Assembly: GCA_964016885.1 (NCBI GenBank)
Contig: OZ024745.1
Coordinates: forward strand, 55,490,001-55,554,000
Reading direction: 5' to 3'
DNA: 64,000 bases
DNA from: Eledone cirrhosa
Lineage: Eukaryota
This document shows positions 17,311 through 61,511 of the stretch, one piece after another. Made by a program: the position numbers and the translations under genes. The notes beneath the pieces are model-generated. The model did no database searches and had not been told where the DNA came from. It was given only the letters and a program-made list of their open reading frames with translations. Position 1 is the stretch's first letter. Each line of letters starts with the position of its first letter.

Positions 17311-19519
17311 ACGGAGGAAATGTGGTAAGGAACCAGGTGGACCATAACGCACCACAGTACTCAATACGTAGGGTAGTAGAGTGGGTAATAGGAACGAGTA
17401 GGACCCCGACGGCTGAGCTCAAGCCGTTTCGACGGCTAATTCTGGACTAAATGAAAATGTTTATCTTGGTATTTGAATAGCCGAGCTTCTCAAGGGGTAA
17501 TTCCATATATGGTCAAAGTGGTTGTCACAAGGATTGGTCAAAAGTTTGTTGTTGAGACATAATAATTCTATGATGGCAATTTGTGGAGGGAAGGGGTAGC
17601 TAAACCTGCCAGTAGGAGAAAGAGGGAGAGGGGTGGAGGAGACCCATTCATGCGTTGATAGTGCCGACTACAGCTTGGCATGAGGTCAAAGAAGATACAA
17701 GGGAGCGGGAGGGGGAGGAAGTCGAAACAATAAGTAGAACAATAAGGGGTAAATATATAGAAAAATACTGAGAGTGTTAAAAAGCAATTAAATGTAAAAA
17801 AAAACAAAATAAAAACATTTCTGGTTACTACGTCCTAAGTCTCTCACTGGTACTGCTAGGCTAAACAAATGTACTAGGTGGGACGGAATTATAATGAGAC
17901 CCTTTTAAGAGGTATAAGTAATAAACCGAGTTATCTTACGGTGACGGGTCAACAAGTGAGGGGCCAAAATACTAAAGAAACTACCACGAAATAATAAATA
18001 AAGGTTTCTACCCCAGGCACAATGCCAGCAACCACCCAGTGCAAAAAAGTAAACTAATACAAAATAATAATTCAGAGTCCCGAAAAAGAATACTAATACT
18101 ATCTCTAAGGGTGCCGCCACGATACAAAAGTTCTAGTGCAAGCTACATAAAAGCTCGTACGAAGTAAATGTAAAATTAGATACAGAAGATTAATTCAGAA
18201 TCCCCCCCCCCCAAAAAAAAATACTGATAAACGAGAAATTAAAGCAAATATACCACTAAGAAATATAGAAAGCACGGAAAAGGGGCAGCGGTCGGATAAG
18301 AGGGTAAGTATCCGGGGTCTAACGCATCTGCTATGAAAAGCGGAGTCGGCCAAATCTATCATATAAAGGGGAAGGGGGTGGGGGTACTGAGGCTACAAAG
18401 GACCGAGGGGCTGCCTCGGGTGGTCGGGAACAAGACGATGACAAAGAAAGAGAACTGGGGTGGAAGGACTAGGGAGGGATGGCGGGAAAAAGGAAATATA
18501 GAGGAAGCGATAAAAAGATATAAAAGAAGATCTTACGTCTACTTTAGCAAGCAGGGGTTACCCATTACAAAATCGACAAGTGGGGTGTTATAGCCCTATT
18601 CTACCCCTCCACCCCCGGGTCATTATGGGGTTTGAGGGCGAGGTAAGTCCTACGCAATCTGTGTTTACATGCAGTAACCAGTTCATCTTTCTTGTTTAGG
18701 AGTTGGTCCGTCGAAAACAACATTTGTAAAGTTTCCTCCGAGCATAAATTGCACGGACGGCGTCCTCCCGTGTAAGAGTTGGCTCTGGACATTAATCTCC
18801 AAGTGAGATCATAGGTAATGTTGTTATCCTTGAGGTCCCATATGTGGCCCGAATGTGTAGTGGCGTGTCGCCGGGTCGGGTTTCGGAAGGTACGTCTGTG
18901 TTGGTATAGCCGGGTCTTGAAGTCAGATGCGGTTAATCCTATATAAGCTTTGTTGGAGGTGTCCGTCCTCACGTTGCACTGGTAGATCACATTACGATCT
19001 CTGCATCTGTTGTCGAGGGGGCAAATGGATCCATCAGGACAGTTGCACCTCCTGGTCGGCTCTCCACTGCTATTTAGGTTATTTCTTCCATAGGGGTTGA
19101 GTTTTTTGTTGTTAGAGGAGACGATGTTTTGTGCAAAGTTTGGTGTAGTGCTGTAAGAGAGTTTGATGGTATTTTTGTTAATTATGTTGTGGTAGCGATG
19201 TTGTAGTGGGAAGTGTTTTTCAATGAGCCTAAAGAAGATTTTCCCGATACCTCGGCGTTGTGGGGGAGGATTGAACCATGTTACATTGCGTGAGCGGCGG
19301 TGTCGCCTGCTAGTTCCGCTAATGGGGGCTGGACAGTAGGATATTTCCTCCCGGAAAACACTGCGCTTGAGGGCCTGGATGTAATAAGGTCCCTGTTCAT
19401 CGAATATCTGCTCATTAGCTGACAAACGGGATATGCGGAGGGAGATGTTTTTAACCAGGTTATTGGTGATGTTCCTAGGATGGTTTGATCGGCGGTGGAT
19501 GTAGTGCAGGTTGTCGTTA
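17311..19519 (-). mobile_element. Penelope-like element (Naiad-type), left arm of a 4.4-kb inverted pair
   Basis: Reverse complement of 19563-21697 plus a longer 3' tail. ORF 18601-19519 encodes RT thumb and GIY-YIG, with a small deletion near WFNPP. Confidence 0.92.
17403..17498 (-). ncRNA. Type I hammerhead ribozyme, family A (U3-A8 core UUGAGAA)
   Basis: Stem I ACCCC/GGGGT, core TTGAGAA, stem II G..CGGCTA/TAGCCG..C with long loop, GAAA, stem III ACGGCT/AGCCGT, GTC cleavage triplet. Confidence 0.75.
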
Positions 19520-20526
19520 CCCTCGACCTCGATGATGATCTGTACTACCCATACAGGAAACCTAACGACAACCTGCACTACATCCACCGCCGGTCAAACC
19601 ATCCTAGGAACATCACCAATAACCTGGTTAAAAACATCTCCCTCCGCATATCCCGTTTGTCAGCTAATGAGCAGATATTCGATGAACATGCGCCTTATTA
19701 CAACCAGGCCCTCAAGCGGAGTGTTTTCCGGGAGGAAATATCCTACTGTCCAGCCCTCATTAGCGGAACCAGCAGGCGACACCACCGCTCACGCAATGTA
19801 ACATGGTTCAATCCTCCCCACAACGCCGAGGTGACAACTCCTATCGGGAAAATCTTCTTTAGGCTCATTGAAAAACACTTCCCACTACAACACCGCTACC
19901 ACAACATAATTAACAAAAATACCATCAAACTCTCTTACAGCACTACACCAAACTTTGCACAAAACATCGTCTCCTCTAACAACAAAAAACTCAACCCCTA
20001 TGGAAGAAATAACCTAAATAGCAGTGGAGAGCCGACCAGGAGGTGCAACTGTCCTGATGGATCCATTTGCCTCCTCGACAACAGATGCAGAGATCGTAAT
20101 GTGATCTACCAGTGCAACGTGATGACGGACACCTCCAACAAAGCTTATATAGGATTAACCGCATCTGACTTCAAGACCCGGCTATACCAACACAGACGTA
20201 CCTTCCGAAACCCGGCCCGGCGACACGCCACTACACATTCGGGCCACATATGGGACCTCAAGGATAACAACATTACCTATGATCTCACTTGGAGATTACT
20301 GTCCAGAGCCAACTCTTACACGGGAGGACGCCGTCCGTGCAATTTATGCTCGGAGGAAACTTTACAAATGCTGTTTTCGACGTACCAACTCCTAAACAAG
20401 AAAGATGAACTGGTTACTGCATGTAAACACAGATTGCGTAGGACTTACCTCGCCCTCAAACCCCATAATGACCCGGGGGTGGAGGGGTCGACTAGGGCTA
20501 TAACACCCCACTTGCCGATTTTGTAA
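19495..20526 (+). CDS. Penelope-like RT thumb plus GIY-YIG endonuclease (open frame, no ATG start)
   Basis: VTLDL...YYPYRKPND, SNHP, WFNPP, KLSYS, CNC-CxLD-C, VIYQC...AYIGLT..FKTR..QH, CNLC..E, LLNKKDEL..CKH. Confidence 0.85.
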   Translation: MDVVQVVVTLDLDDDLYYPYRKPNDNLHYIHRRSNHPRNITNNLVKNISLRISRLSANEQIFDEHAPYYNQALKRSVFREEISYCPALISGTSRRHHRSRNVTWFNPPHNAEVTTPIGKIFFRLIEKHFPLQHRYHNIINKNTIKLSYSTTPNFAQNIVSSNNKKLNPYGRNNLNSSGEPTRRCNCPDGSICLLDNRCRDRNVIYQCNVMTDTSNKAYIGLTASDFKTRLYQHRRTFRNPARRHATTHSGHIWDLKDNNITYDLTWRLLSRANSYTGGRRPCNLCSEETLQMLFSTYQLLNKKDELVTACKHRLRRTYLALKPHNDPGVEGSTRAITPHLPIL

Positions 20527-21697
20527 TTGGTAACCCCTGCTTGCTAAAGTAGACGTAAGATCTTCTTTTATATCTTTTTATCGCTTCCTCTATATTTCCT
20601 TCTCCCCCCATCCCTCCCTAGTCCTTCCACACCAGTTCTCTTTCTTTGTCGTCGTCTTTTTCTCGCCCACCCGAGGCAGCCCCTCGGTCCTTTGTAGCCT
20701 GAGTACCCCCACCCCCTTCCCCTATTCTATGATAGATTTGGTCGACTCCGCTTCTTATAGCAGATGCGTTAGACCCCGGATACTTACCCTCTTATCCGAC
20801 CGCTGCCCCTTTTCCGTGCTTTCTATATTTCTTAGTGGTATATTTGCTTTAATTTCTCTTTTATCAGTATTTTTTTTTGGGGGGGGGATTCTTAATTAAT
20901 CTCCCGTATGTAATTTTACATTTACTTCGTACGAGCTTTTATGTAGCTTGCACTAGAACTTTTGTATCGTGGCGGCACCCTTAGAGATAGTATTAGTATT
21001 CTTTTTCGGGACTCTGAATTATTATTTCGTATTAGTTTACTTTTTTGCACTGGGTGGTTGCTGGTATTGTGCCTGGGGTAGAAACCTTTATTTATTATTT
21101 CGTGGTAGTTTCTTTAGTATTTTGGCCCCTCACTTGTTGACCCGTCACCGTAAGATAACTCGGTTTATTACTTATACCTCTTAAAAGGGTCTCATTATAA
21201 TTCCGTCCCATCTAGTATATTTTTTTAGCCTAGCAGTACCAGTGCGAGACTTAGGACGTAGTAACCAGAAATTGTTTATTTTTTTTTTTTTACATTTAAT
21301 TGCTTTTTAACACTCTAAGTATTTTTCTGTATATTTACCCCTTATTGTTCTACTTATTGTTTCGACTTCCTCCCCTTGCCGCTCCCTGGTATCTTCTTTG
21401 ACCTCATGCCCAGCTGTAGTCGGCACTATCAACGCATGAATGGGTCTCCTCCACCCCTCTCCCTCTTTCTCCTACTGGCAGGTTTAGCTACCCCTTCCCT
21501 CCACAAATTGCCATCATAGAATTATTAAGTCTCAACAACAAACTTTTGACCAATCCTTGTGACAACCACTTTGACGATATATGGAACTACACCTTGAGAA
21601 GCTCGACTATTCAAATACCAAGATAAATATTTTCATTTAGTCCAGAATTAGCCGTCGAAACGGCTTGAGCTCAGCCGTCGGGGTCCTACTCGTTCCT
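19515..21697 (+). mobile_element. Penelope-like element (Naiad-type), right arm, 5'-truncated, with ~1.1-kb 3' region ending in a hammerhead motif
   Basis: ORF and 3' region as described in adjacent entries. Ends ttcct(at)n. Confidence 0.92.
21589..21684 (+). ncRNA. Type I hammerhead ribozyme, family A (single mismatches in stems I and II)
   Basis: ACACC-TTGAGAA(21594-21600)...GAAA(21657-21660)-CGGCT-tgagctc-AGCC-GTC(21677-21679)-GGGGT. Confidence 0.7.
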
Positions 21698-60971: not shown

Positions 60972-61059
60972 ATATATATATATATATATATATATATATA
61001 TTTATATGTATGTATATATATATGTATGTATGTGCATGTGTGTGTCTGTATGTATATAT

Positions 61060-61511
61060 AACAAAGGAATTGTGGTAAGGAACCAGATGGACCATAACGC
61101 ACCAGAGTATTCAATACTTAGGTTAGTAGAGTGGGAAATAGGAAAAAGTATGACCCCGACGGCAGAGCTCAAGCCGTTTCGACGGCTATTTCTGGACTAA
61201 ATTAGAATTTTTAGCCTGGTGAATAAATAGCCGAACTTGTCAAGGGGGTATTTCCTTATATGGAAGATTGTAGTTGTCAGGAGGATTGGTTAACATTTGA
61301 TGTAAACACAAATAAGTCTATCATGGCATTTGGTGGGAGGTAGGGGTGGCTGAACTTGCCTGTAGAACAATAGGGGGGTGAGTGGAGTCGGGCAAACGTT
61401 GAAAGTGATATGTATACAGCAGATTCTAAGGATAGAATCTGCTGTATACAATCACTTTCAACGCTTGACCGACTCCACTTGAGCTCTGCCGTCGGGGTCA
61501 TAGTTTTTCCT
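61060..61511. mobile_element. Family A variant: minus copy with full hammerhead, fold-back 61381-61479, then ribozyme 3' end on plus
   Basis: Direct reading; flanked by (TA)n. Confidence 0.85.
61153..61249 (-). ncRNA. Type I hammerhead ribozyme, family A variant (core UUGACAA)
   Basis: CCCC-TTGACAA-GTTCGGCTATTT...GGCTAAA/TTTAGTC...AAATAGCCGTC-GAAA-CGGC..GCC-GTC-GGGG. Confidence 0.78.

Follow-up and report, generated by a model that had tools for sequence, protein, structure and literature searches.

Genomic junctions point to probable self-cleavage by a type I hammerhead with a variable 3-8 pair in a Hydra-clade Penelope-like element of Eledone cirrhosa

We examined a 64,000-nucleotide (nt) stretch of the Eledone cirrhosa genome (3.0 Gb; assembly GCA_964016885.1, contig OZ024745.1, forward-strand positions 55,490,001 to 55,554,000), hereafter the window, in which a hammerhead-like motif recurs within insertions of a Penelope-like element (PLE). 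An earlier note, made from the letters of the window, had placed five core heptamers at 17487-17493 (-), 21594-21600 (+), 22594-22600 (-), 23020-23026 (+), and 61237-61243 (-), and all five coordinates are correct, on mixed strands. The bare heptamer TTGANAA occurs in the window at chance level (73 matches), whereas the context around the five is not due to chance: ACCCC/GGGGT as stem I, a stem II, GAAA, a stem III, and GUC. The frame runs from ACCCC through the core, G with two bases, a stem II arm and an insertion of 31–33 nt to the second stem II arm, U, C, GAA, ACGGCU, a 7-nt loop, AGCCGU, C, and GGGGU. Judged by its sequence, this frame is a type I hammerhead with the predicted cut 3' of GUC, where the earlier note had placed it; that note gave the stem II insertion as about 35 nt. 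The inner hairpin CTGAAT/ATTCAG, described there as typical of a subfamily, exists as a minority allele; most of the fetched copies of the subfamily read CAGAAT. A 19-nt pattern of the motif gave 7,176 matches genome-wide and its reversed control none.

Copy a (17403..17498, minus strand) is a complete hammerhead of subfamily S6 with the core UUGAGAA at 17493-17487 and the predicted scissile bond at 17408/17407. The adjoining 17311..17407 (minus strand), +1 to about +97 beyond the predicted cut, comprises the 3' strand of stem I and the PLE "tail" with a terminal (TA)n. Copy b (21589..21684, plus strand), also S6, carries mismatches in stem I, which reads ACACC, and in stem II (G>A), and has a short end at about +17. 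Both copies are arms of one inverted, 5'-truncated family-A Hydra PLE insertion (17311..21699; arms joining at about 19515-19519), with the long end at the left and the short end at the right. Likewise, copy c (22512..22605, minus strand), a complete hammerhead of the young S9 with UUGAUAA and a predicted cut after 22517, pairs with copy d (23015..23096, plus strand; S9), in which the core box is present. Copy d cannot be a hammerhead because a 12-nt deletion takes out GAAA and part of stems II and III. Copy e (61153..61249, minus strand) is a complete hammerhead of the older S2 with UUGACAA and a predicted cut after 61158. The open reading frame (ORF) at 58555-59757 was considered as the owner of copy e and rejected, as its family has a different 3' end. 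Since a/b and c/d pair as inverted arms, the window holds three independent sequences, not five.

The host element, which the earlier note had left unnamed, could be reached from the ORF ends within the first insertion. The C-terminal part of the PLE ORF at 19489..20526 (plus strand) contains the CxCX5C linker, a GIY-YIG-like motif, CxxC, and CxH, and shows 86% DNA identity to the full unit; the same ORF end on the inverted arm, at 18601..19593 (minus strand), gives a weak Pfam GIY-YIG match (E 0.0065) under the gathering score. A 1.1-kb 3' region links these ends to the motif, and a search with the ORF retrieved full-length copies. At one locus, five cores are spaced 3,531 bp apart, and four units differ by at most one base. 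The ATG lies at +191 counted from the predicted cut. The 717-residue protein of the unit presents RWR, DKT, YRDD, CxCX5C, a GIY-YIG-like motif, CxxC, and CxH, read by eye against the Hydra definition of Craig 2021 (PMC8557442; this and the other papers are cited from their accessible parts), while a Pfam search with the full 717-residue ORF returned no match. By its protein motifs, we assign the host to the Hydra clade of PLEs, with the hammerhead in its pseudo-long terminal repeat (pLTR). The other traits of the clade are present as well, namely a single ORF with the reverse transcriptase (RT) followed by a C-terminal GIY-YIG-like domain, insertion at (TA)n, tandem and inverted arrangement, and a one-ended tail; insertions terminate in (TA)n at about +17 or about +97. 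A non-LTR retrozyme, made of short non-coding tandem repeats with a hammerhead, was also considered; the tandem unit here is 3,531 bp long and coding.

To describe the conservation of the motif, we used 218 copies from the fetched loci and the window, a sample enriched by the searches made. Hand-set diagnostics sorted 202 of them into subfamilies S1–S9 and a sister family, A2, leaving 16 unplaced; a few family-A copies landed in A2 during the sorting. All 12 core columns and all 10 stem I columns are constant across the ten subfamily majorities, whereas 60 of 91 background columns vary (41 of 91 when A2 is left out), and the ACCCC/GGGGT pairing proposed earlier is conserved. The invariant core set consists of U4 G5 A6, A9, G12 A13 A14, A15.1-U16.1, G10.1-C11.1, and H17. 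In 15 real copies, 88% of the cells are paired, compared with 25–49% in slid controls. Three stem II pairs show double-sided changes, including changes relative to the sister family, and the 14 double-change cells exceed the shuffled mean of 6.3, with no shuffle among 500 reaching that number.

The part of the core that does drift is the 3-8 pair, which occurs as U-A, C·A, U·G, and C-G. U3-A8 accounts for about 74% of the core boxes and C3·A8 for 1,729 of 7,176 (about 24%), while a base other than A at position 8 is found in 106 of 7,176. In the sister family A2, UUGAUAA predominates (375 matches); the core of small older groups is UUGAAGA, UUGAGGA, or CUGAGGA, and a rare distant relative has a CUGAUGA core (5 matches, too few to define a master). 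It had been claimed that only N7 changes and that U3-A8 strictly replaces C3-G8 by compensation. N7 is indeed free, with all four bases among the genome-match rows, but N3 varies too, about a quarter of the core boxes being C3·A8, and older small groups have U3·G8. The C3·A8 copies have further diagnostic changes in common and form S3–S5, and some of their loci are full partial tandems (locus L131). A tree of 75 rows with the core masked was used as an unrooted ladder, the root being unreliable owing to outgroup rows with a non-homologous flank. In it, the C3·A8 copies make up a continuous trunk segment flanked by U3-A8 groups, with about 0.32 substitutions per site summed over 14 branches, nine of them starred. 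The direction of age, from old S1/S2 to young S8/S9, was taken from median divergences of 4.5–6% versus 0.5–1%. C3-G8 copies within family A were considered as covariation and rejected, as they are explained by A8G changes in the C3·A8 subfamilies. We found no published report of natural C3·A8 lineages in the literature covered, outside which lay key biochemical papers and most supplements, and our literature search for rate data on C3·A8 or U3·G8 gave nothing usable.

If the motif cuts, reverse transcription from +97 would meet the cut RNA end, so run-off at G+1 is expected. We therefore counted tailed S4–S9 copies in which all three bases preceding G+1 differ from the element, and 410 copies passed this junction test. 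Among the first 30 fetched, 22 were true junctions, and the others were intact copies with a G insertion (7) or a C deletion (1). Artefact-like rows made up 24 of 100 listed, which leaves about 300 tailed copies starting exactly at G+1. The raw counts at control positions were 63 at -5, 46 at +7, 45 at -1, and 39 at -2, the last two having been obtained with a tighter filter and rescaling to 68 and 58; the count of 178 at +2 consists, for about four fifths of 100 listed rows, of G deletions in intact copies. The partner arm ends at or beside the same site in 10 of the 22 true junctions. The base preceding G+1 is T in 14, A in 6, and G in 2 of them; as G precedes +1 only twice, there is no excess of a cap-derived G. 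Against 17,434 intact tailed copies crossing the site, cut templates amount to about 2% raw and about 4% after filter correction, and about 96–98% of the tailed copies cross it. Cleavage appears minor or late. For a tail variant characteristic of S3, seven independent true events were counted in the first 100 of 261 rows, versus 1.3 expected at the control rate (14 of 15 non-TCG S3 rows fetched, rows counted by eye, S3 being mostly, not wholly, C3·A8), and these sequences suggest cleavage activity of the C·A core. Contigs of two sequencing runs held nothing bearing on cleavage. In the literature covered, which left figures and most supplements aside, we found no earlier description of genomic junctions peaking at the cut of a PLE hammerhead. 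Two further arrangements start at G+1: at locus L313:1400-1530 a stretch from inside the PLE's own ORF is fused straight to it, as a shortened circle or a template jump would give, and loci L413 and L414 carry short head-to-tail repeats each restarting there, which repeated jumps or a small circle could produce.

One G+1 junction locus has the 3' end of U6 as its partner. The U6 3' end gave 100 matches, 30 of them in a gene array; the 70 dispersed ones were all inspected, along with one member of the array. Three matches, representing two independent insertions from separate subfamilies, are joined to family A, in each case immediately at G+1. In one of the insertions both arms show this junction, which points to a chimeric RNA. 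No U6 join elsewhere in the S8 or S3 references was seen among the examined matches, a comparison that may overlook 3' regions of older subfamilies where these have diverged. RtcB joins U6 to 5'-OH ends and only inefficiently to 5'-triphosphate ends, the full-length ligation product being obtained in 0 of 26 with a triphosphate acceptor (Moldovan 2019, PMC6789731). By analogy, U6 joined at G+1 is as expected for a 5'-OH cleavage end, and an end-to-end template jump would likewise require an RNA end at this position. Many other U6 3' ends (loci L417-L486) are attached, at positions that vary, to the 3' ends of further repeats, among which one with terminal TAAAAGAG repeats is the most frequent. 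The tandem U6 array comprises 30 matches about 1.8 kb apart (G000:C19:31,778,861-31,840,329).

Most copies of the 3' part of the motif stop short of the core. Exact matches genome-wide numbered 50,701 for the 3' half and 7,176 for the core box, patterns of unequal length. Among 30 copies sampled with the 3'-half pattern, the end lies 3–24 nt upstream of G12 in 24 and at 25–78 nt in none; the 30 copies of the sister family were all scored as ending at 3–31 nt, though one (L214) is actually complete. The junctions are varied, and most of these copies form short inverted pairs. An amplified miniature inverted-repeat transposable element was rejected as their source, given the heterogeneous junctions. 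From the positions of the ends, we infer a polymerase stop within stem II, which would account for tens of thousands of short inverted copies. The window contains such 3'-halves at 21819..21881 (plus strand; ending within stem II, without the core box) and 47348..47492 (plus strand; tailed and inverted within the stem II insertion), together with two short inverted pairs, 58456..58738, with both ends 15–17 nt upstream of G12, and 60786..60976, with ends 5 and 17 nt upstream.

The sequence AGCCGUC serves as the 3' strand of both stem II and stem III, and hence a competing hairpin arises. This hairpin, AGCCGT-CGAA-ACGGCT, had been proposed as an off-state hiding GAAA. It is present, and it is the minimum-free-energy fold in copies a and b, not in c and e. 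Its predicted probability is 0.54–0.85 in S3–S7 and S9, 0.24 in S8, and 0.00–0.01 in S1, S2, and A2, so it is not conserved as the dominant state. According to these models, the hairpin may reduce activity. In the youngest subfamily, S8 (loci L113-L127), A10.2-U11.2 and a stem III G·U have been acquired, and each is predicted to shift folding towards the hammerhead; the predicted share of the hammerhead fold is 0.21 in S8 and at most 0.011 in S3–S7 and S9.

Taken together, the motif is quite probably a type I hammerhead that sits at every unit boundary of a Hydra-clade PLE and cleaves itself in vivo 3' of GUC in only a small fraction of the RNAs that are copied. Self-cleavage in living cells is likely, as judged from footprints in genomic DNA; the G+1 peak and the U6 fusions lend indirect support to the word "active" in the earlier note. 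We envisage a tandem transcript with one hammerhead per unit boundary. Reverse transcription would start at about +17 and about +97 on (TA)n targets and run back across the site. On uncleaved or re-ligated templates, copying would continue and usually stall in stem II, giving the short inverted copies. A few percent of the templates would be cut, with a 5'-OH left at G+1, and on these the polymerase would run off at G+1 or carry on into a second RNA, for instance U6, attached to this 5'-OH. The 3-8 pair might drift while the other core bases stay fixed because insertion would not need efficient cleavage. In vitro, dead ribozymes had no effect on insertion of a Poseidon PLE, and unprocessed RNA was the dominant template (Frangieh 2024, PMC11167929). 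A circular template, as has been proposed for PLEs (Cervera 2014, PMC4209133), would suit the near-identical tandem array, but so would an uncut multimer or DNA duplication.

Several observations weigh against this reading. The number of pairs with double changes (123 of 500 shuffles) and of pair types (344 of 500) is not significant, and the aligned sequences are related, which inflates the covariation test. Stems I and III are conserved and hardly covary, one G·U in S8 being the exception, and C3-G8 doubles in family A are not above chance (8 in the first 100 rows). No Rfam hammerhead model appeared among the 150 listed of 254 window matches, nor for copy c at E up to 10, and the earlier note had remarked that CUGANGA-based searches miss the U3-A8 variant. 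Isolated folding gave z-scores of -2.62, -2.56, and -2.48 for copies c, d, and e, and of only -0.69 and -1.22 for a and b, and in S3–S7 and S9 the hammerhead takes up a minor share of the structures predicted for the isolated motif. The U6 support amounts to two events. RNA-seq of an anole PLE showed no reads ending at the cut site (Frangieh 2024, PMC11167929).

Could the hammerhead shape have been kept as a structural or protein-binding element without cleavage, the G+1 peak being a stop of the reverse transcriptase at the three-way junction? Structure stops are clear elsewhere in the motif (24 of the 30 sampled copies ending 3–24 nt upstream of G12), a competing hairpin is predicted, and 24% of the core boxes are C3·A8 on a trunk of about 0.3 substitutions per site, all of which would suit such an element. 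Yet the peak is one base wide and coincides with the predicted scissile bond, not with -1 or -2 where stem III begins, the U6 fusions, of which one is seen on both arms, speak for a genuine RNA 5' end at G+1, and the catalytic positions are invariant. We therefore consider this explanation unlikely. A real 5' end at G+1 could also be a transcription start within the pLTR, the footprint being run-off at the transcript 5' end and ribozyme activity left aside. PLE promoters lie in the pLTR (review PMC6765202), and G+1 is situated about 190 nt upstream of the ATG. Such a start must happen to coincide with the predicted scissile bond, though, no excess of G precedes +1 (2 of 22), and a 5'-triphosphate acceptor yielded none of the 26 full-length U6 ligations, although an end-to-end template jump needs no 5'-OH; less still speaks for this account, which we regard as improbable. 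The version of the earlier note, a strictly compensatory U3-A8 ribozyme turned off by a conserved alternative hairpin, agrees with U3-A8 in about 74% of the core boxes and with the fold predicted for copies a and b. It is hard to reconcile with the amplification of C3·A8 subfamilies, with the negligible hairpin in S1, S2, and the sister family, and with the origin of the hairpin in the double use of AGCCGUC, and we find it very improbable.

Building on probable self-cleavage in vivo, we offer more tentatively, as a possibility short of being probable, that the germ line holds a fossil record of PLE hammerhead cleavage at nucleotide resolution, including cut RNAs ligated to U6, and that the hammerhead went on cutting while three master subfamilies succeeded one another with C3·A8 unpaired in the core. 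C3·A8 would then work via a C·A wobble, like U·G, or by pairing C3 with G7 in a shifted register, G being the N7 base in 95 of the first 100 C3 rows. As a C3·A8 hammerhead would on this tentative reading have kept cutting, the core consensus would become YUGANRA. New here are the cleavage footprints in DNA and the trunk of C3·A8 copies; the U3-A8 PLE hammerhead itself was already known, in print since 2014 (PMC4209133) with natural U3-A8 covariation reported in 2011 (Perreault 2011), and the supposed "overlooked" lineage is not supported as a new kind. Cutting by PLE hammerheads in vivo and its purpose have been called unclear (Craig 2021, PMC8557442). Counts of 5' junctions in genomic copies could provide an assay-free readout of cleavage, usable on any PLE-rich genome, which here puts cleaved templates at roughly 2–4% of tailed insertions, and the C3·A8 trunk offers natural, datable core variants for probing a pair regarded as essential and speaks for running descriptor searches with YUGANRA.

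The window contains further repeats. A second (TA)n-inserting repeat has eight copies, five on the minus strand (23672-23642, 24174-24144, 26491-26461, 26941-26911, and 34018-33988) and three on the plus strand (27503-27533, 34229-34259, and 52289-52319), with a small CUGAYGA hammerhead of short stems II and III, like published Hydra motifs. A different young Hydra PLE family with intact 713-residue ORFs is found at 58555-60770 and at loci L053-L082. Its pLTR has a deviant box, CAGAAGA ... UGAAA, with no clear stem I, identical in 25 copies, and this is possibly an active family without a canonical hammerhead. An intact-looking long interspersed nuclear element (LINE) ORF of 1,204 residues (endonuclease, RT, zf-RVT) lies at 41794-45408 (plus strand), with inverted relatives at 4496-10259, and a perfect 255-bp inverted repeat with a 2-nt spacer at 32066-32577.

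Among known systems, the closest hammerhead is that of the Cercyon PLEs of Schistosoma mansoni (Cervera and De la Pena 2014, PMC4209133), likewise type I in the pLTR with U3-A8 (about 1,300 matches there), G10.1-C11.1 and a palindromic stem III region, and missed by CUGANGA descriptors. In contrast to Cercyon, stem III here has 5–6 bp and a 7-nt loop and is monomer-competent on paper, stem II carries the 31–33-nt insertion with a 2x1 loop after 10.1-11.1, the host belongs to the Hydra clade, and C3·A8 and U3·G8 lineages occur. The dimer-type minimal hammerhead of PLEs, with a minimal stem III or one of 1–2 bp and an extra base between A9 and G10.1, does not describe the motif, in which G10.1 directly follows A9; the palindromic UGAGCUCA is predicted still to permit a dimer. 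The element resembles the Hydra-clade PLEs (Craig 2021, PMC8557442) in RWR (RWK there), DKT, the CxCX5C linker, CxxC, and CxH, as well as in (TA)n targets, inverted truncated arms, a one-ended tail, and a hammerhead near the 3' end. It differs in that the Hydra rows examined in their File S2 all have CUGANGA cores, short loops 2, and a stem III of 3–4 bp, and in the lengths of the unit (3.5 kb here, mostly <3 kb there) and the tail (about 80 nt here, 30–40 there). The (TA)n ends at about +17 and +97 match the two internal reverse-transcription starts that bound the tail downstream of the hammerhead in Poseidon PAc of Anolis (Frangieh 2024, PMC11167929), where unprocessed RNA is also the main template and the targets are AT-rich. 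Unlike PAc, with its cut within the ORF and no RNA-seq reads at the cut, the element described here is predicted to be cut about 190 nt upstream of the ATG, and its genomic junctions pile up at that site. The U6 chimeras recall those made by RtcB with LINE-1 (Moldovan 2019, PMC6789731), in which U6 ending in a U-tract is joined to retroelement RNA and then retrotransposed. Whereas the LINE-1 partners are variably truncated, both chimeras found here join at one predicted ribozyme cut.

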